This document shows positions 2,759 to 38,705 of a DNA stretch of 42,773 bases, one piece after another (within the stretch, counting starts at the first letter, position 1; every line of letters starts with the position of its first letter). The notes below the pieces were generated by a model. That model worked only from the letters and a program-made list of their open reading frames with translations, was not told the DNA's origin and ran no database searches. A program made the position numbers and the translations under genes. The stretch lies in the UHGV virus genome UHGV-0008253; one strand, 5' to 3'. Origin of the DNA: a virus.

Positions 2759-3050
2759 AAACCACCCCACAACATCCTATGCCGCTATAGTCGCCACGGC
2801 GAAGGCCGTTACCTTTTGTGATACATTGGTCCCTGCGAACCGCGATCCTTGCACGCTCAACATCACCAGAAGCAACATCCATACACTGAAGCCAAAGGTG
2901 GGCGGCAATGCGGAACTGCCCTTTTTTCTCTCTTTCAATCGCGCGTTTTTCGATCTCTATCGCCGCAGGAGTAACGGCAACAACCTTTGAAGGGCTGCGC
3001 ATTGAAACCTTGTTCATGTGATATTTTTCAAGTCGGCTTAACTTTCTCAC
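2751..3050 (-). CDS. hypothetical protein
   Basis: ORF in operon context, tightly coupled to methyltransferase start; no recognisable motif. Confidence 0.4.
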   Translation of the reverse strand: MRKLSRLEKYHMNKVSMRSPSKVVAVTPAAIEIEKRAIEREKKGQFRIAAHLWLQCMDVASGDVERARIAVRRDQCITKGNGLRRGDYSGIGCCGVVYD

Positions 3051-3159
3051 TTAATCCAACCCTCTCTGAAAATTAATGCCAGCAGATAAAGCCATGCTGA
3101 AACAGAGGCCAGGAATAAGTACCATCCTGACCATTTGCTCCATTGCCTTAGCAGCACAC

Positions 3160-3408
3160 TCATGCCGCGTTGCTCACAGGACGATATACACGTTGCTGAA
3201 CAGGAGGTTTTTTACCCTGGAACTCTGCCGGGCTTGCTGCCTGACGTTCATCAAGCCAACGCTCAACTTCATCACGGTTCCATGCGCAGCGTTTGTCAGT
3301 GATATACCAGCGTTTAGGAAATTCCCCTGCGCGCTCCATACGGTCGATAGTGCTCCATGACAGTGGCACCACCGCCATGAGTTCCTTCTTACCTAATGCA
3401 CCTTTCAT
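3160..3408 (-). CDS. AlpA/Vis-like small HTH regulator (excisionase-type)
   Basis: MAVVPLSWSTIDRMERAGEFPKRWYITDKRCAWNRDEVERWL resembles AlpA-family proteins; two possible ATG starts (3408 or 3378). Confidence 0.65.
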   Translation of the reverse strand: MKGALGKKELMAVVPLSWSTIDRMERAGEFPKRWYITDKRCAWNRDEVERWLDERQAASPAEFQGKKPPVQQRVYRPVSNAA

Positions 3409-12876: not shown

Positions 12877-12917
12877 GAGTAGATTATGCATGATGAATTT
12901 GATGGGGTTTGAATACT

Positions 12918-12943
12918 GCCGCCAACTATGGCGGCTTTATTTT
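12918..12943 (+). terminator. rho-independent terminator immediately upstream of terS
   Basis: hairpin gccgcc-aactat-ggcggc followed by tttatttt. Confidence 0.7.
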
Positions 12944-12986
12944 GCATGGTACTATTACCACAACGGTAACTATTACCACGGTGGTT

Positions 12987-13583
12987 ATGATGCCTGCTGA
13001 ACCTAAAGCCTATAAACGCAAATCAACGCAATTTAAGCCACTAACAGCAATGCAGGAGGCTTATTGCCAGTCATACATCAAAACGCCTGAAAACCAGACT
13101 CAGGCAGCGATTAACGCAGGATTCTCCCCAAATACAGCGGCAGTTAAAGCCAGTGTCATGATGCGCGATGAACGCATTCAAAAACGGATTGCCGAGTTGA
13201 TGGAGGAGCGCAACAAACGAATGCGCGTCAGTGCTGATTACGTTCTCATGCGCTTGGTGGAGATCGACCAGATGGACGTGATCGACATCCTCAACGACGA
13301 TGGTAGCCTTAAGCCAATCCGAGAGTGGCCGAAAATCTGGCGCACTACGCTTAGCGGCTTTGATCTGTCATCGACCATCATGAACATGAACGAGGATTCG
13401 ATAGAGACAATCCTCAAAAAAATTAAATGGCCTGACAAGGTGAAGAACCTCGAACTGATTGGTAAGCACGTCGACGTCAACGCATTCAAAGAACGCCTGG
13501 ATGTTAATGTGAATGTGACAATTGCTGATCGCATAGCGGCAGCCAGGAAGAGACTGAAAGAACGTCAGGATGGCAATCAGTGA
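12987..13583 (+). CDS. terminase small subunit
   Basis: position upstream of and overlapping terL; start at ATG 12987 (MMPAEPK) after terminator. Confidence 0.65.
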   Translation: MMPAEPKAYKRKSTQFKPLTAMQEAYCQSYIKTPENQTQAAINAGFSPNTAAVKASVMMRDERIQKRIAELMEERNKRMRVSADYVLMRLVEIDQMDVIDILNDDGSLKPIREWPKIWRTTLSGFDLSSTIMNMNEDSIETILKKIKWPDKVKNLELIGKHVDVNAFKERLDVNVNVTIADRIAAARKRLKERQDGNQ

Positions 13584-15055
13584 CAGATACAGCGTTATCT
13601 CCTGAAGAGCAGTTAATCGAGGATATTGCAGGGTTCACTCACGATCCGCTTGGCTATGCCCTCTATGCGTTCCCGTGGGGGGAAGAGGGTACTGAACTGG
13701 CACATGCCACCGGTCCACGTCAGTGGCAGGCCGATGCGTTCCGAGAGATACGTGATCACCTGCAGAATCCAGAGACGCGATATCAGCCGCTTATGCTGGC
13801 ACGTGCTTCTGGTCACGGTATTGGTAAATCCGCATTTATCTCAATGCTGATCAACTGGGGCATGTCCACTTGCGAGGATTGTAAGGTCGTGGTGACCGCC
13901 AACACCGACAACCAGCTACGAACGAAGACCTGGCCGGAAATTATCAAGTGGTCAAACCTTGCTATCACGAAAGACTGGTTTACCTGTACCGCTACCGCGA
14001 TGTACAGCAATGACCCTGGGCACGACAAGCGGTGGCGAGCTGACGCAATCCCCTGGTCTGAGCACAACACTGAGGCATTCGCCGGACTACACAACGAGCG
14101 TAAACGCATCATCGTGGTATTTGATGAAGCGTCGAACATTGCGGATCTGGTGTGGGAAGTTGCCGAGGGTGCGCTAACGGACGAAGACACTGAGATTATC
14201 TGGGTGGCTTTCGGAAACCCTACACGTAACACCGGGCGTTTCCGTGAATGTTTCCGCAAATACAAACACCGCTGGAAAACTGCGCAGATTGACAGCAGGA
14301 CGGTGGAAGGCACCAACAAACAGCAGTTGCAGAAATGGGTTGATGACTACGGGGAAGATAGCGACTTCGTTAAAATCCGTGTGCGTGGCATATTCCCTGA
14401 TGCATCTGAATTGCAGTTTATCCCTACCGGTCTTACTGACGAGGCAATGAAACGGGTGGTAACCGCTGCGCAGGTGGCACATGCTCCGGTGATAATCGGT
14501 GTTGACCCGGCATATTCAGGCGTTGATGACGCGGTGATATACCTGCGGCAGGGGCTACACAGTAAGGTGCTGTGGACTGGCAACAAGACTACCGACGATC
14601 TGATTATGGCGAAGCGTATCGCTGACTTTGAAGACCAGTATCAGGCTGACGCGGTGTTCATCGACTTCGGTTACGGAACCGGTTTGAAGTCAATCGGTGA
14701 CGGCTGGGGTCGTACATGGCAACTTGTTCCGTTCGGTGGCGCGTCTACTGACCCGCAGATGCTCAACAAGCGTGGGGAGATGTTCAACTCATGCAAGACA
14801 TGGCTGAGGCTGGGCGGCATGCTGGATGACCAGGAAACAGCGGACGACCTGTCGGCGGCAGAGTACAAAGTTCGAGTGGACGGTAAAATCGTTATCGAAC
14901 CGAAGGAAGATATCAAGGAGCGGCTTGGGCGTTCGCCGGGTAAAGGCGATGCGCTACTGCTGACGTTTGCTTTCCCGGTCTCGAAACGCATAAATATACC
15001 AGGACAGCAAAGCCAGCAGGGAAGGGCCATTACAGATTACGATCCCTATGCTTAA
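13580..15055 (+). CDS. terminase large subunit
   Basis: Walker A-like ARASGHGIGKSAF, size 491 aa, followed by portal module. Confidence 0.85.
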   Translation: MTDTALSPEEQLIEDIAGFTHDPLGYALYAFPWGEEGTELAHATGPRQWQADAFREIRDHLQNPETRYQPLMLARASGHGIGKSAFISMLINWGMSTCEDCKVVVTANTDNQLRTKTWPEIIKWSNLAITKDWFTCTATAMYSNDPGHDKRWRADAIPWSEHNTEAFAGLHNERKRIIVVFDEASNIADLVWEVAEGALTDEDTEIIWVAFGNPTRNTGRFRECFRKYKHRWKTAQIDSRTVEGTNKQQLQKWVDDYGEDSDFVKIRVRGIFPDASELQFIPTGLTDEAMKRVVTAAQVAHAPVIIGVDPAYSGVDDAVIYLRQGLHSKVLWTGNKTTDDLIMAKRIADFEDQYQADAVFIDFGYGTGLKSIGDGWGRTWQLVPFGGASTDPQMLNKRGEMFNSCKTWLRLGGMLDDQETADDLSAAEYKVRVDGKIVIEPKEDIKERLGRSPGKGDALLLTFAFPVSKRINIPGQQSQQGRAITDYDPYA

Positions 15056-15098
15056 TCCGCTTGAGGGGATAATGTTGTTGATATCCTCTGATGAGGAT

Positions 15099-15132
15099 AA
15101 AACAAAGCCAGCTCATAGGCTGGCTGTTTGTG
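15099..15132. terminator. bidirectional terminator between convergent terL and minus-strand 123-aa gene
   Basis: hairpin agccagc-tcatag-gctggct flanked by A-run and T-rich tract. Confidence 0.55.
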
Positions 15133-15145
15133 ATATGTCACGGTG

Positions 15146-15517
15146 TTATTGCTCGCTTAACTTCTGCTTCAGCAAGTAACCTTCAAGCATCCAGATTTTG
15201 TTTACAGCATTCTGTCGGGCAATCTTCCGACCAATTTCTGCATCAAAGTTTTCCGGGCTTGCACAGGCGCTCTCTCCGGTGACGGTGAAGCCGTTGCGCA
15301 GCACCAGGACGCAGAACGTCAGCAGAGAAAGTGATTCGTGCGGCTGGTAGTTTACCTCTCCGCCAGTATGTTTCGCTTTTATGGCTACGCCAAAGGCACC
15401 ATCTTCTGCTGTGAAATATGCCTCCTGAGCAATAATGCTCTCGATATGGTCTGGCGTAACGCGCGGCGCGGCTAAACCTTTAGCCTGAATTTCAGATTCA
15501 ATGTCTTTTTCACTCAT
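15146..15517 (-). CDS. hypothetical protein (reverse-strand insert, co-oriented with tRNA-Arg)
   Basis: 123-aa ORF; no family recognised. Confidence 0.5.
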   Translation of the reverse strand: MSEKDIESEIQAKGLAAPRVTPDHIESIIAQEAYFTAEDGAFGVAIKAKHTGGEVNYQPHESLSLLTFCVLVLRNGFTVTGESACASPENFDAEIGRKIARQNAVNKIWMLEGYLLKQKLSEQ

Positions 15518-15720
15518 AGTCTAATCTCACCTTAAAAAAATGCCCTGCGAACCGGGCGAACTGGAAGCAATGAGTTATGCCTTCCGTGGCTGTACTGGTT
15601 TACAGCATGAAGTCATCGCAATGGCGTCCTGCTGTAAAAAGGGCGGTGATAGTCCTTCAAGGGAAACCATCACCGCCAAGCACCTGGAACTTCTGGCATC
15701 ACGGTCCTTAGGCGTGATTC

Positions 15721-15797
15721 TGGCGTGGCATGCAGGATTCGAACCTGCGACCAACCGCTTAGAAGGCGGTTGCTCTGTCCGACTGAGCTAATGCCAC
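15721..15797 (-). tRNA. tRNA-Arg (anticodon UCU)
   Basis: cloverleaf read directly: acceptor GTGGCAT/ATGCCAC, D-stem GCTC/GAGC, anticodon stem ACCGC/GCGGT with loop CUUCUAA, T-arm GCAGG-TTCGAAT-CCTGC, discriminator G, CCA. Confidence 0.85.
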
Positions 15798-16119
15798 AAC
15801 GCTGAGAGCACTTAGCCTGTTAAGGCACCACACTTTGTCGCGGCTCCATAAATGCTCTCATCGTTGTACCCTCGTCTCTTCCGAGGCGTCACACCGAATC
15901 GCCGGGATGGTGAATCCCCGTGCGCGGAATAAAACCGCTCGACTTGCACATTCCGGCTACCTGGTTCGTTTGCCCGAGCAAGGGAGGGTGCCCCTTAAAC
16001 GTATCCAGACCGCTATCGGCGCATGTGCCATACGCCGTACTGCTCAAAATAAAAGCTCACTCCACCTGTTTAATTTAACGACAAGCCAGTCAGGTTAGTA
16101 ACCAGAATGAGCCCTTTGG

Positions 16120-16134
16120 TTACCTGAAAGGTAA
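16120..16134. promoter_or_regulatory. operator palindrome TTACCtgaaaGGTAA upstream of head gene block
   Basis: perfect TTACC-N5-GGTAA. Confidence 0.6.
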
Positions 16135-16224
16135 TAATTAACGCGTTAAATGTCAACCTTCTACGATAAATAAATCATATGTGGTTAAATTGGTAATAAT
16201 TTAATTGCGTACGGAGTCATTGAT

Positions 16225-16431
16225 ATGTGCATGGGTAGCTCACCATCAGTGCCTGCAACACCAGAAGTTCAGGCAGCACCACAGGAGCAGGATGCCGCCG
16301 TTGTTGATGCCCGCGACGAAGAAACACGTCGCCGTCGCGCTGCTGCTGGTCGTAGTTCTACGCTGCTTACCGGTTCTCAGGGCGACACATCAACCGCTAA
16401 TACCAGCGGTAAAACGCTGCTTGGTCAGTAA
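16225..16431 (+). CDS. hypothetical small protein preceding portal
   Basis: ATG with ACGGAG SD, ends 15 nt before portal start. Confidence 0.45.
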   Translation: MCMGSSPSVPATPEVQAAPQEQDAAVVDARDEETRRRRAAAGRSSTLLTGSQGDTSTANTSGKTLLGQ

Positions 16432-16445
16432 CCGGAGTCATTGAA

Positions 16446-18125
16446 ATGGCGGAAACAACTAAAGAGCGATTGAACAAACAGTTCGCACAACTTGAAAGCG
16501 AGCGTCAGTCGTTCGAGCCGCACTGGCGCGAGTTGAGTGATTACATCAACCCGCGTGGTTCCCGCTTTCTGACTTCTGAAGTCAACCGTAACGATCGACG
16601 CAATACACGCATTATTGATTCGACCGGGACTATGGCGGCGCGCACTCTCGCCAGCGGCATGATGTCAGGCATCACAAGCCCTGCGCGTCCGTGGTTTCGC
16701 CTGGCTACGCCAGATCCTGAAATGATGGATTATGGTCCTGTTAAGTTGTGGCTCGAGGCGGTGCAGAACCGCATGAACGATATGTTCAATAAGTCGAATC
16801 TCTACCAGTCTCTTCCGCAGTTATACGGAAGCCTCGGCACATACAGCACTGGTGCAATGGCGGTGCTGGAGGATGACGAGGACATCATTCGCACAATGCC
16901 ATTCCCGATAGGCAGTTACTACCTGGCTAACTCACCTCGTGGCAGTGTGGACACCTGTTTTCGCAAGTTCTCTATGACTGTTCGTCAGCTTGTTCAGGAG
17001 TTCGGGCTAAATAACGTCAGCGAATCCGTAAAAAGCATGTGGGAAAGCGGCACCTACGAGAAGTGGATTGAAGTGATGCATTCGGTTTACCCGAACATTG
17101 ACCGCGATACATCGAAGCTGGATAGCAAGAACAAGCCATTCAAATCGGTTTATTACGAGGTTGGTGGCGATAACGACAAGTTGTTGCGTGAGTCCGGATT
17201 CGATGAGTTTCCAATTATGGCTCCGCGCTGGGAAGTTAACGGCGAAGATGTTTATGGATCATCATGCCCGGGTATGCTGGCGCTTGGACCTGTTAAGGCA
17301 TTGCAGCTTCTCCAGAAGCGCAAGTCGCAGTTGATTGATAAAGCCACCAATCCGCCGATGGTTGCTCCGACTTCCCTCAAGAATCAGCGTGCCTCCCTTC
17401 TTCCTGGCGACATCACGTATATCGATCAGATTACTGGTCAGGATGGTTTCAGGCCTGCTTATCTGGTTAACCCCAGTACAGCAGATTTGGTGGCAGACAT
17501 TCAGGACACTCGTCAAATCATTAACAGCGCCTACTTTGTCGATCTGTTCATGATGTTGCAGAACATCAATACCCGCTCGATGCCTGTTGAAGCGGTGATC
17601 GAAATGAAAGAAGAAAAACTTCTGATGTTGGGGCCGGTTCTGGAGCGTCTGAACGACGAATGTCTTAATCCTCTCATTGACCGCTCTTTCTCGATGATGG
17701 TGCGTAAAAACATGCTGCCGCCACCGCCAGACGTGATGGAAGGTATGCCCCTGAAGGTCGAATACATTTCCGTCATGGCTCAGGCGCAGAAGTCTATCGG
17801 CCTGTCCAGTCTGGCGTCCACGGTTAACTTCATTGGTCAACTTGCGCAAGCGAAACCAGAAGCTCTCGACAAACTCAACGTTGATCAGGCGATCGATGCA
17901 TTCGCTGATATGTCCGGAGTGTCTCCAACCGTCATTGTTCCGCAGGAACAGGTTGAGCAGGCTCGCCAGCAACGGGCACAGCAGCAACAGCAGCAACAAA
18001 TGATGGCGATGGGGATGGCGGCGGCACAGGGTGCCAAGACGCTAAGCGAAGCTAAAACTTCGGATCCGAGTGTTTTGTCAGCTATGGCGAATGCAGTTAG
18101 TGGTCAGGGTGGGCAATCACAATGA
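16446..18125 (+). CDS. portal / head-to-tail connector protein (podovirus type)
   Basis: 559 aa, C-terminal poly-Q and MAMGMAAAQG tail resembling T7 gp8-type connectors; position after terminase. Confidence 0.75.
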   Translation: MAETTKERLNKQFAQLESERQSFEPHWRELSDYINPRGSRFLTSEVNRNDRRNTRIIDSTGTMAARTLASGMMSGITSPARPWFRLATPDPEMMDYGPVKLWLEAVQNRMNDMFNKSNLYQSLPQLYGSLGTYSTGAMAVLEDDEDIIRTMPFPIGSYYLANSPRGSVDTCFRKFSMTVRQLVQEFGLNNVSESVKSMWESGTYEKWIEVMHSVYPNIDRDTSKLDSKNKPFKSVYYEVGGDNDKLLRESGFDEFPIMAPRWEVNGEDVYGSSCPGMLALGPVKALQLLQKRKSQLIDKATNPPMVAPTSLKNQRASLLPGDITYIDQITGQDGFRPAYLVNPSTADLVADIQDTRQIINSAYFVDLFMMLQNINTRSMPVEAVIEMKEEKLLMLGPVLERLNDECLNPLIDRSFSMMVRKNMLPPPPDVMEGMPLKVEYISVMAQAQKSIGLSSLASTVNFIGQLAQAKPEALDKLNVDQAIDAFADMSGVSPTVIVPQEQVEQARQQRAQQQQQQQMMAMGMAAAQGAKTLSEAKTSDPSVLSAMANAVSGQGGQSQ

Positions 18126-34164: not shown

Positions 34165-34815
34165 TCAGAAGAACCCTGCCTTGTCGTTGATGTACTCCGC
34201 GTGGGTCTGGATATCACGCAGGCATTTGCTCACACCGACGATGTAGCAGAACATGGTGGTCAGCTCCGCCGCCGCGCCCGATACGTCGTGCCCGTCGTCC
34301 TGTAACTGGTTCAGCAGATTCATCAGCAGTGAGTTCTCCGTCAGGCCGAGAACACCAGACGGCGAATGAATCAGGCTACGGTAGCCGGGCTTCAGTGGGG
34401 CACTGTATTCTTTTTTGTCTTCCAGCTTGATCGCCTCCATAATGGCGGGCATGAAGCCTGACAAGACCTTCTCCACTTTTGTTTCTTGTTGTCTTAAACG
34501 TTTCTCGCATTCAATGAAGTAGCGTCGTACCTGACGACCTTTTTCGTTACGCTCGACCATCGCCAGCTCTTTGGCTGTATCGAGGGTGAGGTGGTAGTCT
34601 TTTGCAGGACGGCCTCTGCCTATTTTTTCCCGAACTTGGGAAATAATCATAAAGTCTTGATTTTCAACGAAACCATATTCAGAAATTCGTTCGACAATCC
34701 ACGAAGCAAATCGCTTACCCACATCGAGGAAAGTGTGTAAATCACGGGCATTAACGAGAAGAGCGGTTTCGTTGGATATAGTGCCGTTGAATACGGGGAT
34801 GAGTTGAGCGTTCAT
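34165..34815 (-). CDS. antirepressor (AntA/Bro-N-like N-terminal domain + C-terminal domain shared with 85-aa protein)
   Basis: N-terminus LIPVFNGTISNETALLVNARDLHTFLDVGKRFASWIVE resembles AntA-type antirepressors; C-terminus about 40 percent identical to 35133-35390 product. Confidence 0.65.
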   Translation of the reverse strand: MNAQLIPVFNGTISNETALLVNARDLHTFLDVGKRFASWIVERISEYGFVENQDFMIISQVREKIGRGRPAKDYHLTLDTAKELAMVERNEKGRQVRRYFIECEKRLRQQETKVEKVLSGFMPAIMEAIKLEDKKEYSAPLKPGYRSLIHSPSGVLGLTENSLLMNLLNQLQDDGHDVSGAAAELTTMFCYIVGVSKCLRDIQTHAEYINDKAGFF

Positions 34816-34973
34816 TATGGCGTCTCCACTTAGCGAATTACATCACCACCGCTGAGACCAATCAGATGGTGGTGAACTGAACGGAGTTGGTCTTACCGGC
34901 CTAAGTGGTACCGGCGTCCTTTCGGACCCCCATTCAGCCCACCATAATTCTGGCATGACTGTGCTATACGCAT

Positions 34974-35095
34974 AAAAAAACCACGTCTGGCGTGGTATGC
35001 GCCACTTAGTAATCCGGGAGACCAATCCCGGCACTGGATTTTGCCAGTGCCCGATTACTATGGCACAAGAGGAGTGCGATGTAAATTTACCTCAA
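34974..35095 (-). ncRNA. candidate small RNA / structured ant leader ending in intrinsic terminator
   Basis: candidate promoter -35 TTGAAA (35124-35129), -10 TTATAT (35102-35107), operator over +1; three stem-loops (ggcactgg/ccagtgcc, ccggga/tcccgg, ccacg/cgtgg) then U7. Confidence 0.4.
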
Positions 35096-35585: not shown

Positions 35586-38500
35586 ATGACGGTCTCAACC
35601 GAAGTTGACCACAACGAATACACCGGTAACGGCGTTACGACATCGTTTCCGTATACTTTTCGAGTTTTCAGAAAATCAGACCTGGTTGTTCAGGTGTCTG
35701 ACCTGAACGGAAACGTAACAGAATTGGTTCTGGATACCGGTTATACGGTAACTGGGGCGGGCACTTATAGTGGCGGTTCTGTGGTTCTTCCGTCTCCGCT
35801 TGCTACTGGATGGCGAATTACGATAGATCGTGTGCTTGATGTAGTGCAGGAGACAGACCTTCGCAATCAGGGAAAATTTTTCCCCGAAGTGCATGAAGAT
35901 GCCTTTGACTACCTGACGATGCTGATCCAGCAATGTTTTGGGTGGTTCAGACGTGCATTGATGAAACCATCTTTGCTTGCAAAATATTACGATGCAAAGC
36001 AAAACAAAATTTCTAACCTTGCAGATCCATCATTTGAGCAGGACGCTGTAAATAATCGCTCAATGCGTAATTATGTCGATGCTGCAATCTCCGGGGTTGT
36101 TGGTGGTTTTGGTTGGTTTATTCAGTATGGTTCTGGGGCTGTGTACCGAACGTTCCAGGATAAAATGCGTGATGCTATTAGCCCCAAAGATTTTGGAGCT
36201 GTTGGTGATGGTATAAATGACGATTCCACTGCAATAAGCGCGTGCCTTGAAGCCTCATCTCCAGGTTATAAAATTGACGGATTAGGGCTTACTTTTAAAG
36301 TATCAACTCTTCCGGATGTCAGTCGATTTAAAAATGCTCGTTTTTTATTTGAGAGAATACCGGGCCAGCCTCTTTTTTATGCTTCTGAAGATTTTATCCA
36401 GGGAGAGTTATTTAAAATTACAGATACACCGTGGTACAACGCCTGGACGCAGGATAAAACGTTTGTATATGACAATGTCATCTATGCGCCTTTTATGGCT
36501 GGAGACCGCCATGGTGTAAATAACCTCCATGTTGCATGGGTTCGCTCAGGAGATGACGGGAAGACCTGGACAACGCCGGAATGGCTTACAGATTTACATG
36601 AAAACTATCCCACAGTTAACTATCACTGCATGAGTATGGGGGTTGTCAGAAATCGCCTTTTTGCTGTAATTGAGACGCGGACCGTGAGCGGAAATAAACT
36701 GCAGGTTGCAGAGTTGTGGGATCGCCCAATGAGTCGCAGCCTTCGCGTTTATGGTGGTATAACGAAAGCAGCAAATCAGCAAGTCGCTTATATTCGCATT
36801 ACTGATCACGGATTATTTGCTGGTGATTTTGTCAACTTCTCAAACTCTGGTGTTACAGGTGTTACCGGGAATATGACGGTGACTACTGTTATTGATAAAA
36901 ATACTTTTACAGTTACGACGCAAAATACCCAGGATGTGGATCAGAATAACGAGGGTAGATACTGGAGTTTTGGTACATCATTTCACTCGTCACCATGGAG
37001 AAAAACCAGTCTTGGAACTATTCCTTCTTTTGTTGACGGAAGCACTCCTGTTACTGAGATTCACAGTTTTGCGACGATTAGCGATAACAGTTTTGCTGTT
37101 GGCTACCATAATGGTGATATTGGTCCACGCGAGCTTGGGATACTCTATTTCTCTGATGCTTTCGGTTCTCCTGGTAGCTTTGTTCGCAGACGCATACCTG
37201 CAGAATATGAGGCGAATGCATCTGAGCCATGTGTAAAATATTATGATGGCATTCTGTATCTGACGACCAGGGGGACATTAAGTACTCAACCCGGTAGTTC
37301 ATTGCACAGAAGCTCTGATTTAGGTACATCATGGAATTCTCTTCGCTTCCCAAATAATGTTCATCACTCAAACCTTCCTTTTGCCAAAGTTGGCGATGAG
37401 CTGATTATTTTTGGCAGTGAGCGCGCATTTGGTGAGTGGGAAGGAGGAGAACCTGATAACCGTTATGCAGGAAACTATCCAAGAACATTTATGACCAGAG
37501 TTAACGTCAATGAGTGGAGTCTGGATAATGTAGAGTGGGTTAATGTTACTGATCAGATTTATCAGGGCGGAATAGTTAACTCTGCGGTTGGTGTTGGTTC
37601 AGTTTGTATCAAAGACAACTGGCTGTACTACATTTTCGGTGGGGAAGACTTTCTAAACCCATGGAGCATAGGGGATAACAACAGAAAATATCCTTATGTT
37701 CACGATGGTCACCCGGCTGATTTGTATTGTTTCAGGGTGAAAATTAAACAGGAAGAATTTGTTTCAAGGGATTTTGTCTACGGAGCCACTCCTAACAGAA
37801 CGCTTCCTACTTTTATGTCGACGTCAGGCGTGAGGACGGTTCCTGTACCCGTTGATTTCACAGATGATGTTGCCGTCCAGTCACTGACTGTCCATGCAGG
37901 TACATCAGGACAAGTTCGCGCGGAAGTCAAACTTGAGGGTAATTACGCCATTATTGCGAAGAAAGTACCGTCTGATGATGTTACCGCTCAGAGATTAATC
38001 GTTAGCGGCGGTGAAACAACGTCTTCAGCAGATGGTGCAATGATAACGTTGCATGGTTCCGGAAGCAGTACTCCACGTCGCGCGGTATATAACGCACTCG
38101 AACATCTTTTTGAGAACGGAGATGTTAAACCTTATCTTGATAATGTAAATGCTCTTGGTGGTCCGGGAAACAGGTTCTCGACAGTTTATCTTGGCTCCAA
38201 TCCTGTGGTTACCAGTGACGGAACATTAAAGACAGAGCCGGTCTCTCCTGACGAAGCATTGCTGGATGCCTGGGGTGACGTCAGGTATATCGCTTATAAA
38301 TGGCTGAACGCTGTCGCTATAAAGGGGGAAGAAGGGGCGAGGATACATCATGGTGTAATCGCGCAGCAACTTCGTGATGTTCTTATTTCTCACGGACTCA
38401 TGGAAGAAGAAAGCACAACATGCCGCTATGCCTTTCTTTGCTATGACGATTATCCCGCAGTATATGATGACGTCATTACTGGCCAAAGGGAAATGCCGCT

Positions 38501-38705
38501 GACTGATAATGACGGGAGCATCATTGTTGATGAGGATGATAATCCAGTGATGGTAATAGAAGACATCATTGAGCGCGTTGAAATAACGCCAGCAGGATCT
38601 AGATGGGGGGTCAGACCTGATCTCTTATTCTATATCGAGGCAGCATGGCAGCGCAGAGAAATGGATAAGATAAAAGAGCGGGTTCAGTCTCTGGAAGAAC
38701 GTTAA
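35586..38705 (+). CDS. tailspike / receptor-binding depolymerase with pectate-lyase-like beta-helix and C-terminal intramolecular chaperone (S74-like) domain
   Basis: ISPKDFGAVGDGINDDSTAISA motif typical of beta-helix tailspikes; C-terminus SDGTLK...IHHGVIAQQLRDV...AAWQRREMDKIKERVQSLEER resembles autoproteolytic chaperone domains. Confidence 0.8.
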   Translation: MTVSTEVDHNEYTGNGVTTSFPYTFRVFRKSDLVVQVSDLNGNVTELVLDTGYTVTGAGTYSGGSVVLPSPLATGWRITIDRVLDVVQETDLRNQGKFFPEVHEDAFDYLTMLIQQCFGWFRRALMKPSLLAKYYDAKQNKISNLADPSFEQDAVNNRSMRNYVDAAISGVVGGFGWFIQYGSGAVYRTFQDKMRDAISPKDFGAVGDGINDDSTAISACLEASSPGYKIDGLGLTFKVSTLPDVSRFKNARFLFERIPGQPLFYASEDFIQGELFKITDTPWYNAWTQDKTFVYDNVIYAPFMAGDRHGVNNLHVAWVRSGDDGKTWTTPEWLTDLHENYPTVNYHCMSMGVVRNRLFAVIETRTVSGNKLQVAELWDRPMSRSLRVYGGITKAANQQVAYIRITDHGLFAGDFVNFSNSGVTGVTGNMTVTTVIDKNTFTVTTQNTQDVDQNNEGRYWSFGTSFHSSPWRKTSLGTIPSFVDGSTPVTEIHSFATISDNSFAVGYHNGDIGPRELGILYFSDAFGSPGSFVRRRIPAEYEANASEPCVKYYDGILYLTTRGTLSTQPGSSLHRSSDLGTSWNSLRFPNNVHHSNLPFAKVGDELIIFGSERAFGEWEGGEPDNRYAGNYPRTFMTRVNVNEWSLDNVEWVNVTDQIYQGGIVNSAVGVGSVCIKDNWLYYIFGGEDFLNPWSIGDNNRKYPYVHDGHPADLYCFRVKIKQEEFVSRDFVYGATPNRTLPTFMSTSGVRTVPVPVDFTDDVAVQSLTVHAGTSGQVRAEVKLEGNYAIIAKKVPSDDVTAQRLIVSGGETTSSADGAMITLHGSGSSTPRRAVYNALEHLFENGDVKPYLDNVNALGGPGNRFSTVYLGSNPVVTSDGTLKTEPVSPDEALLDAWGDVRYIAYKWLNAVAIKGEEGARIHHGVIAQQLRDVLISHGLMEEESTTCRYAFLCYDDYPAVYDDVITGQREMPLTDNDGSIIVDEDDNPVMVIEDIIERVEITPAGSRWGVRPDLLFYIEAAWQRREMDKIKERVQSLEER

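Follow-up and report, generated by a model that had tools for sequence, protein, structure and literature searches.

Introduction

The locus described here is best compared with structured RNAs of phage early leaders. The precursors of two such RNAs, C4 and CI, are substrates of RNase P. In the lambdoid phage HK022, whose put RNAs act in cis as processive antiterminators, putL occupies the same kind of early-promoter-proximal place as the RNA presented below, and put comprises ~70 nucleotides (nt) forming two stem-loops (PMC9378689). The present study deals with a structured RNA of the UHGV virus genome UHGV-0008253, a stretch of 42,773 nt (hereafter the window) which represents a phiV10/epsilon15-type prophage (Uetakevirus). 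The RNA is encoded by a 1169-bp insert (15056-16224) between terL and a small open reading frame (ORF) of 68 amino acids. In the order of the minus strand, the insert comprises a promoter with operator, the RNA of ~324 nt (about 16121-15798), a gene for a transfer RNA (tRNA), tRNA-Arg(UCU), two terminators, a gene for a 123-amino-acid protein (here called acb4) and a bidirectional terminator. The initial annotation of the window had described an oppositely oriented unit that breaks the packaging and head genes, which is correct since the unit lies on the minus strand and terS, terL and the portal gene on the plus strand.

For the 123-amino-acid protein, the closest characterized relative is anti-CBASS 4 (Acb4) of the Bacillus phage SPO1. 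Acb4 belongs to PF13876, a family with 1,331 homologues, mostly from phages and prophages, and was characterized in 2024 as a sponge directed against the cyclic oligonucleotide-based antiphage signaling system (CBASS) (PMC11722364). All eight of the eight tested homologues bind 3'3'-cGAMP, those of phages with Gram-negative hosts also bind 3'3'-cAA, and the binding activity of SPO1 Acb4 appears early in infection (PMC11722364). The pocket of the SPO1 protein is formed by K36, F48, E49, V56, Y57, F62, N63, I66, T70 and K81 (PMC11722364).

Results

Fold and covariation of the RNA

The non-coding part of the insert, from 15798 to about 16120, had been annotated as lacking a credible ORF and as a possible structured RNA or degraded second tRNA. 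Only short, low-complexity, arginine-rich ORFs of 45-87 amino acids were indeed found there on either strand. Strong support for the structured-RNA option came from covariation, from a pseudoknot and from an excess of G·U pairs on one strand. From 5' to 3', the RNA is composed of the following elements:

16052-16115, minus strand: 5' stem-loop, termed module X (GGGCUCAUUC...GGAGUGAGCUUU, motif GUCGUUAAAU), from a single-sequence fold
15870-16037, minus strand: core (~190 nt), built from four helices and a pseudoknot
16037-16017, minus strand: helix H1, CGGCRUAU-GGCAC-AUGYGCCG in the alignment
between H1 and H2, minus strand: junction AUAGCGGUC, AGCGGUC in the alignment
16008-15961, minus strand: helix H2, with a covarying outer stem (CUGG/CCAG, CCGG/CCGG, CUGAC/GUCAG, CCAC/GUGG)
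15960-15943, minus strand: near-invariant block GUAGCCGGAAUGUGCAAG, followed by a variable hairpin
15918-15904, minus strand: helix H3, 4-bp stem with the loop YUCACCA
15912-15909 with 15895-15892, minus strand: pseudoknot of CACC (H3 loop) and GGUG, the latter within the strand GGCG-N4-GGUGUGAC
15886-15870, minus strand: helix H4 with the loop GAAGAGA
15798-15867, minus strand: long hairpin H5 (ACAACGAUGAGAGCA...UGCUCUCAGCGUU) from a single-sequence fold, its last base abutting the first base of the tRNA

For comparative analysis, ~150 loci were gathered by pattern scans and thinned to 52 sequences of at most 94% identity, which were aligned by sequence only (alignment A1). Four matches in non-enterobacterial metagenome-assembled genomes (L015, L019, L020 and L025; such numbers denote individual loci) were rejected as chance matches since they were devoid of all other motifs. 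Applied to A1, a structure of 33 pairs had 92.6% of its cells paired, and 18 pairs were changed on both sides, which concerned 121 cells. None of 500 shuffled controls reached the observed covariation, while sliding the partner columns left only 26-47% of the cells paired. The pseudoknot covaries too: CACC/GGUG is replaced by AACC/GGUU in at least three backgrounds and by UGGUC/GACCA in another. G·U cells (142) strongly exceeded A·C cells (11), and the proportion of paired cells was 84.9% when the alignment was read from the other strand. Due to this excess of G·U pairs, the functional RNA is taken to be read from the minus strand, which is also that of the tRNA and the 123-amino-acid gene.

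The covariance model R1, built from the relatives, detected the RNA in the window as a single copy on the minus strand (15856-16043, 148.6 bits, E 1e-42), a score far beyond chance. The inverted repeat gagagca...tgctctc (15804-15810/15853-15859) pointed out in the initial annotation proved to be real as it forms the stem of H5. In relatives, H5 occurs with 14 distinct arm pairs, all of which can pair, e.g. GAGAGCGCAC/GUGCGCUC, GUAAGAGCA/UGCUCUUUC and GAUGGCU/AGUCAUC. Single-sequence folding yielded weak z-scores (-1.4 to -2.0), so that the case for an RNA rests on the comparative data. RNAalifold proposed that GCACAU, which belongs to the loop and 3' strand of H1, pairs over a long range with AUGUGC of the near-invariant block, and a kissing contact of four H1-loop bases, all of them invariant, with this block is possible. 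It is highly probable that the non-coding stretch encodes a genuine structured RNA.

Module X, whose arms covary, recurs in other loci, where it precedes or follows the core, sometimes in several copies and also in the ban operon of P1. P1-like loci additionally carry it ~1-2 kb further upstream than the core.

Plus-strand ORFs at 15540-15791 and 15835-16098 and some annotated genes of relatives either cover the tRNA in antisense orientation or overlap the structured RNA. The genes of relatives are:

2672-2923 of the phiV10 locus (L001): PhiV10p04, hypothetical protein
2934-3302 and 2749-2892 of the mEp460 locus (L002): mEp460_036 and mEp460_037, hypothetical proteins

These hypothetical proteins and the two plus-strand ORFs of the window that match them are almost certainly spurious gene calls.

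Distribution of the RNA

By blastn, the core (~15851-16038) is 70-84% identical in unrelated phages. Lambdoid carriers are mEp460, cdtI, 2H10, Ayreon and Shiga toxin (Stx) converting phages of the Stx2c and Stx2a types. Among plasmids and phage-plasmids, the core is present in P1, P7, D6, SJ46 and RCS47 as well as in 590 plasmid records, mostly of P1-like phage-plasmids. It was also detected in other members of Uetakevirus (SPN1S, Tyrion, PAT1), in the Klebsiella phage SopranoGao (Lastavirus) and in a Stenotrophomonas siphovirus. About a third of the complete E. coli genomes (1,840 of 5,426) harbor the core, with up to four copies per genome. By nucleotide search, the entire 1169-bp insert recurs at 97-99% identity in phiV10, in the O157 typing phages 9 and 10 and, as part of prophages, in 223 complete E. 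coli genomes. A megablast search of phage records with the insert also returned 65 Synechococcus phage records at high identity, presumably by virtue of the tRNA-Arg(UCU) segment only.

None of the 12 E. coli matches listed has an annotated feature under the core, and of the 24 matches listed for the core or the entire non-coding stretch (E. coli, plasmid, phage) none bears an annotation, apart from a few calls of hypothetical proteins. Searching 14900-16500 with the 4227 models of Rfam 15, only the tRNA passed and nothing was reported over 15798-16121 at E values up to 10; the best other matches were at chance level and lay over the antisense strand of the tRNA or over a terminator. As a text string, the conserved block occurs in no searchable paper, but subscription papers lay outside this search and a prior description is therefore possible. 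The searchable literature on phiV10/epsilon15 non-coding RNAs, Stx phage early regions, structured RNAs of temperate phages and the P1 ban operon contains no description of this RNA, nor is it described in two surveys of non-coding RNAs by the Breaker laboratory. We rate the RNA as a new family within a known general kind (structured RNAs of phage early leaders), not as categorically new.

The core is an optional element. SfV possesses the same cI, the same promoter, the same leader (module X, a stem-closed domain and a terminator) and the same early-left operon, but lacks the core entirely. Comparison of SfV with L030 and L111 revealed that the core has been inserted, with ...GGUGAAAAGACAGGCA on one side of it and the beginning of module X on the other. 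In epsilon15 (L005, 2634-2727), only a remnant consisting of H1 and the junction is left (38.7 bits), there is no tRNA, and acb4 is intact. An 'RNaseIII' processing site annotated on the plus strand of epsilon15 (2720-2819) overlaps this remnant. The cryptic prophage CPS-53 of K-12 shares the early-left genes but has lost the leader, for which reason transcriptome data of K-12 are not applicable. Upstream of yfdP in CPS-53 (L159, 9380-9520), the RNA leader is replaced by degenerate tandem repeats (GACGGGTCAGATTTTGA...).

Where tRNA genes adjoin the RNA, they are always on its strand. In 27 of the 150 loci, tRNA-Arg(UCU) follows directly at the 3' side, while in 11 P1-like loci tRNA-Ile2 is situated ~15 nt to the 5' side.

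Promoter and operators

Upstream of the RNA, the following elements were identified:

16151-16156, minus strand: -35 hexamer TTGACA, read from the sequence, followed after a 17-nt spacer by TACCTT at 16133-16128
16120-16134, no strand assigned: operator palindrome TTACCTTTCAGGTAA, within which the -10 hexamer TACCTT is situated
136, 5628, 5690, 6402, 6787, 8733, 8795, 16120, 34084, 35087 and 35467, both strands: copies of the palindrome found by motif scan

Related loci show the arrangement TTGACA-N17-TACCTT, likewise combined with the palindrome, ahead of the RNA. A generic scan for sigma-70 promoters called neither the promoter of the cassette, whose -10 hexamer is weak, nor those of the relatives; the promoters were instead recognized by their conserved TTGACA with its spacing and by the operators. 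In 17 of 55 representative loci, the 140 nt preceding H1 contain an exact TTGACA, compared to a background of 0.019 per 140 nt. As these hexamers cluster at -35 to -41 relative to the core, the first base of the core lies approximately at the start of transcription.

Counted on both strands, the palindrome TTACCT-N3-AGGTAA occurs 23 times in the window, where 0.75 matches would be expected; the matches correspond to ~12 dispersed copies clustered at the immunity and antirepressor regions. Judged from sequence, this set looks like dispersed operators in the style of P1 C1, by which several operons would be placed under one repressor. Repressor sites are annotated at the corresponding position of epsilon15; together with the position of the operator over the promoter, this suggests that the cassette is controlled by the prophage repressor. 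In mEp460, cdtI and Stx2 phages, cI and its terminator are followed by two operators with a promoter and, ~40 nt later, by the RNA. In P1, the RNA belongs to the C1-controlled ban operon, where it lies 15 nt after tRNA-Ile2 and just before ban. An early, putatively repressor-controlled position is thus common to three unrelated phage groups, the Uetakevirus of the window, the lambdoid/Stx2 phages and P1.

The tRNA gene

Directly adjoining H5, with a spacer of 0 nt, is the tRNA gene:

15721-15797, minus strand: tRNA-Arg(UCU) with encoded CCA (ARAGORN; Rfam RF00005, 73.3 bits)

The initial annotation as a canonical cloverleaf reading AGA holds. ARAGORN accepted the tRNA, the Rfam score compares with a gathering score of 29, and A20, the anticodon loop CUUCUAA, G73 and the encoded CCA are retained. 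It is the only tRNA that ARAGORN found in the whole window, where neither a second tRNA nor a transfer-messenger RNA was detected. The gene is 82% identical to argU of E. coli K-12, with mainly compensatory differences in the acceptor and anticodon stems, and the T arm is kept as well. Identity elements recognized by arginyl-tRNA synthetase are A20, C35 and U36/G36. The alignment with argU revealed that all arginine identity elements and the 3' CCA are present. By its sequence, the tRNA appears as an intact, diverged isoacceptor and not as a copy of the host gene or as a fragment or duplicate serving as attachment site.

In a rough gene set of the window, AGA accounts for 6.7 and AGG for 5.6 per 1000 codons. 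The average for AGA in E. coli is ~2 per 1000 codons. AGA is concentrated in the tailspike gene (35586-38705, plus strand; 16 of the 88 codons counted) and in genes for internal virion proteins, whereas the major capsid gene contains none. A role of the tRNA in the supply for AGA codons is reasonable, and its benefit may be gene-specific.

The Acb4-family gene

The last gene of the cassette is located where it had been placed before and starts with ATG:

15146-15517, minus strand: gene for a 123-amino-acid protein, PF13876 (N4 Gp49/Sf6 gp66), predicted cyclic-dinucleotide sponge

The earlier statement that its product belongs to no recognizable family is out of date. In a profile search, the protein emerged as a clear member of PF13876 (Phage_gp49_66; E 2.3e-35; 121.4 bits, the cut-off being 27), with an alignment that extends over all 82 positions of the profile. 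It also matches PHROG 322 (E 3e-62) and bears the RefSeq name 'Gp49 family protein'. The sole match to a solved structure, obtained by phmmer, is SPO1 Acb4 (PDB 9e4w, E 0.0068) in the region of ENF-x-x-EIGR. In the pocket, the protein retains F48, F62 and I66 (its F77, F91 and I95), while N63 is changed to D, E49 to T, Y57 to A and T70 to I; K36 and K81 are outside the aligned stretch. Since the specificity residues E49, Y57 and T70 differ, the ligand preference may deviate from that of SPO1 Acb4. The protein is likely an anti-CBASS cyclic-dinucleotide sponge.

Terminators and neighboring genes

Three terminators were assigned to the cassette:

15633-15677, minus strand: T1, strong intrinsic terminator, 14-bp stem followed by CUUUUUAC; found by terminator scan at 15677-15642 and as a hairpin in the fold of the spacer
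15534-15557, minus strand: T2, weak hairpin GCCCGGUUCGCAGGGC followed by U7, read from the sequence, shortly before AAGGUGAG, which is the ribosome-binding site of the 123-amino-acid gene
15106-15125, no strand assigned: bidirectional intrinsic terminator, called by the scan on both strands, closing terL and the cassette; annotated in phiV10

T1 begins ~45 nt after the tRNA. T2 was not called by the generic terminator scan; in epsilon15, a rho-independent terminator is annotated at the equivalent place. The genes bordering the insert are:

12909-13583, plus strand: terS, PF03592
13580-15055, plus strand: terL, from the ORF list
16225-16431, plus strand: small ORF of 68 amino acids just before the portal gene, PHROG 831, E 2e-36
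16446-18125, plus strand: portal gene, PF12236, E 3e-187

The 68-amino-acid product starts with MCMGSSPS..., which looks like a lipoprotein signal with a cysteine at position 2; it is kept as gp3 of epsilon15.

Elsewhere in the window, Rfam identified an IsrK RNA (34974-35050, 67.7 bits) which is directly followed by a C4 antisense RNA (34865-34949, 61.2 bits), both on the minus strand. Downstream of this pair lies an antirepressor-like ORF (34165-34815). According to these matches, the pair represents a putative P1/P7-type immI (c4-ant) immunity module in a podovirus-type prophage.

Leader modules of the lambdoid relatives

In lambdoid loci, the slot of the tRNA is held by a domain of ~130 nt with a closing 10-bp stem (GUUGUGGUGA/UCACCACAAC). 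Using relaxed, intron-tolerant settings, ARAGORN detected a degenerate tRNA in this slot of L099, while the other lambdoid domains gave only junk calls. The domain is suspected to be tRNA-like, a label based on the 10-bp closing stem and the position only. After it come a conserved GCUGUGUGUAGUCUUGG, an immediately adjoining intrinsic terminator and then the early-left genes.

More generally, the early-left leaders of lambdoid phages without N (L002, 3004-2815; SfV, L174, 5040-4780; downstream of the core in L030, L139, L010 and L008) contain several conserved RNA modules, namely ACAAC...GUUGUGG hairpins (module X), the stem-closed domain and GCUGUGUGUAGUCUUGG, none of which is annotated. In L111, a hairpin and then UGCUCUUUAACAAUCU are found ~110-150 nt after the invariant block, and L055 and L068 are similar. 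This motif is close to the rrn boxA consensus, which suggests antitermination of the untranslated leader by Nus factors in that subgroup. In L009 and L099, the core is flanked on both sides by multiple short hairpins whose loops are GAAAGA or GAAGAG (CCGG-GAAAGA-CCGG). They resemble H4 of the core and, loosely, boxB of lambda, and may be repeated sites for an RNA-binding protein.

Discussion

The reading preferred here, albeit tentatively, is that of a released early RNA acting in trans, which is freed by RNase P at the abutting tRNA. Under lysogeny, the accessory cassette would remain off, and loss of the prophage repressor would activate it immediately. The promoter overlapped by the operator would then drive a single leftward transcript comprising the RNA, the tRNA, the two terminators and the Acb4-family gene. 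From this transcript, the tRNA could supply AGA decoding for the late genes, in which this codon is more frequent than in host genes, while the Acb4-family protein, by its family membership, would act as a tetrameric sponge soaking up CBASS cyclic dinucleotides. The core is envisaged as a self-contained module which is exchanged horizontally and with which immediate-early transcripts begin. RNase P would cut at the first base of the abutting tRNA and thereby free the RNA; in lambdoid phages, the cut would take place at the stem-closed domain in the tRNA slot. The freed RNA might act in trans on a conserved component of the host or the phage, and its companions make a role in host takeover or counter-defense most likely.

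Three considerations led to this proposal. Because SfV lacks the core and epsilon15 has only a remnant, yet retains T2 and acb4, read-through of the terminators would seem independent of the core. Since the core moves between differing regulatory circuits and stands among accessory cargo, it resembles a moron or anti-defense gene rather than a core control element. Finally, the strict abutment of a tRNA or a stem-closed domain points to a conserved site of RNase P cleavage, by which a discrete RNA would be set free. Structure, strand, distribution, promoter-proximal position and optional nature of the RNA are thus established by the data, while its processing, its action in trans and its target are what we infer.

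On the other hand, several points weigh against this proposal. The RNA is always co-oriented with the downstream genes, and in P1 it is situated in the middle of an operon, directly before ban. T1 and T2 stand in tandem with no evident promoter between the tRNA and acb4, and terminators separate the RNA from the first ORF in many other loci as well (e.g. mEp460, 2856-2815). RNA, terminators and genes in this order are the layout expected of a cis-acting antitermination leader. Moreover, we infer the 5' and 3' ends of the RNA along with its cleavage by RNase P. The patterns used to fetch the loci required two conserved blocks, so that the invariance of the blocks is partly a matter of construction; a scan with a different anchor, however, still revealed only single-base variants of the central block.

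Accordingly, the most serious rival, though an unlikely one, is a cis-acting leader which modifies its own RNA polymerase in the manner of HK022 put or protects the long untranslated early transcript from intrinsic or Rho-dependent termination. Such a leader would let transcription pass the tRNA, T1 and T2 to reach acb4, or would allow it to reach the early-left genes or ban in other phages. Besides the layout just mentioned, this is in line with the position of the RNA directly downstream of repressor-controlled early promoters, often at the start of transcription, with the rrn-type boxA just after the core in some variants (L111) and with the near-invariant unpaired blocks, which would fit the binding of a conserved machine, e.g. 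RNA polymerase. By contrast, the SfV leader, which is followed by the same terminator and early-left operon without any core, argues against an obligatory antitermination role, as does epsilon15 with T2, intact acb4 and a mere remnant. HK022 has putL and putR, but here a single copy was found per immunity region and none was found within ~3 kb to the right of cI (pR side). Any similarity to put is lacking: R1 gave no match in the whole HK022 genome (best E 6.8, in a tail gene), and as put is a small RNA of two hairpins, the RNA is not regarded as a member of the put family. A lambda-type nut boxA (GCUCUU(U/A)A) had no match on the minus strand of 15798-16121, and the 3' arm of H5, which covaries as a helix, is boxA-like in some relatives only. 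Read-through beyond acb4 would moreover run antisense into terL, and the preservation of a tRNA or stem-closed domain at the 3' junction would be left unexplained.

Very improbable is a riboswitch or attenuator that senses, for instance, a nucleotide second messenger and gates the counter-defense gene via T1/T2. The multi-helix fold with its pseudoknot and highly conserved unpaired nucleotides, the location in a 5' leader ahead of terminators and the predicted cyclic-dinucleotide sponge as cargo would suit such a device, but T1 lies beyond a complete tRNA and ~45 nt, which leaves the aptamer without an overlapping expression platform, no riboswitch family of Rfam matches, and the downstream genes (ban, early-left yfdP-T-like genes, small ORFs) are unrelated across phages. 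Even less credit is given to a DNA-level element (a site of single-strand initiation or recombination), a decaying remnant such as a degraded tRNA or pseudogene, or a small coding gene. Hypothetical proteins are annotated over the core (mEp460_037, Ayreon and others), tRNAs adjoin it, and G-T wobble pairs are also possible in single-stranded DNA. However, the compensatory changes preserve pairing and not codons, the variable hairpins differ in length by non-multiples of three, and the ORFs are short, arginine-rich and on the strand opposite to that of the G·U signal. The degraded second tRNA considered in the initial annotation is not supported as ARAGORN and Rfam reject a tRNA in the non-coding stretch and the fold is not a cloverleaf. 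Decay is difficult to reconcile with 70-84% conservation and covariation across five phage groups, and a DNA element or remnant with a core that is always co-oriented with transcription and starts at promoters.

Regardless of which reading applies, an RNA with covariation support occurs in about one third of complete E. coli genomes, in P1 and its phage-plasmid relatives and in Stx2a and Stx2c phages without a name, an Rfam family or an RNA annotation in the records examined. The covariance model and the coordinates can be used directly by database curators. Being made, as its predicted repressor-controlled promoters imply, at the first moment of infection or induction, the RNA is a candidate for a part in early gene control or in the arms race between phage and host. 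The early region of Stx phages sets the efficiency of induction and the toxin yield (bioRxiv 10.1101/2024.03.06.583675). In addition, a probable function as anti-CBASS sponge can now be assigned to a 'hypothetical' gene of phiV10/epsilon15-type phages. If the RNA turned out to be an RNA-only antiterminator or an RNA anti-defense factor, it would join a very short list. It is conceivable, if doubtful, that the core represents a new class of portable phage RNA effectors, immediate-early and pseudoknotted RNAs of ~190-320 nt, exchanged by P1, Stx2 lambdoids and epsilon15-like podoviruses and freed by tRNA-processing enzymes, which neutralize or reprogram an immune sensor, a nuclease, the RNA polymerase or the translation apparatus of the host. 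Such effectors would be the RNA counterpart of co-transcribed protein anti-defense genes.

Comparison with known systems

Like HK022 put, the RNA is a structured phage RNA near a repressor-controlled early promoter and ahead of terminators and early genes. Put needs no dedicated phage protein and is, in principle, movable between contexts. What separates the two is the architecture, since the RNA studied here has a core of ~190 nt with four helices, a pseudoknot and accessory hairpins, and occurs as a single copy, not as a left/right pair. C4 of P1/P7, CI of P4 and IsrK (RF01695, RF01394) are likewise regulatory RNAs from leaders of early or immunity operons. They are, however, antisense regulators of ~70-90 nt with known target repeats, whereas no such repeats were found for the core RNA. 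Neither in sequence nor in structure does it match these RNAs; the Rfam matches to C4 and IsrK in the window are confined to 34865-35050, with none at 15798-16121.

The species 1 and 2 RNAs of T4, which are stable RNAs encoded in the phage tRNA cluster, and RNAs of the DicF type, which are processed from early operons of prophages, have in common with the RNA that they are non-coding, co-transcribed with tRNAs and presumably released by tRNA-processing enzymes. In P1, the core RNA even shares its operon leader with three tRNAs and a dicF-like region. Homology was not detected. As for the companions of the RNA, the tRNA agrees with host argU in the anticodon loop, A20, the T arm, G73 and CCA and is, in this respect, a usual phage tRNA serving a rare host codon; it differs by being joined without spacer to the 3' end of a structured RNA. 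The 123-amino-acid protein shares with SPO1 Acb4 the family PF13876 and the match over the beta3-alpha4 pocket region, and its predicted early expression fits as well. SPO1 Acb4 has only 96 amino acids, while the protein encoded downstream of the RNA carries an N-terminal extension.

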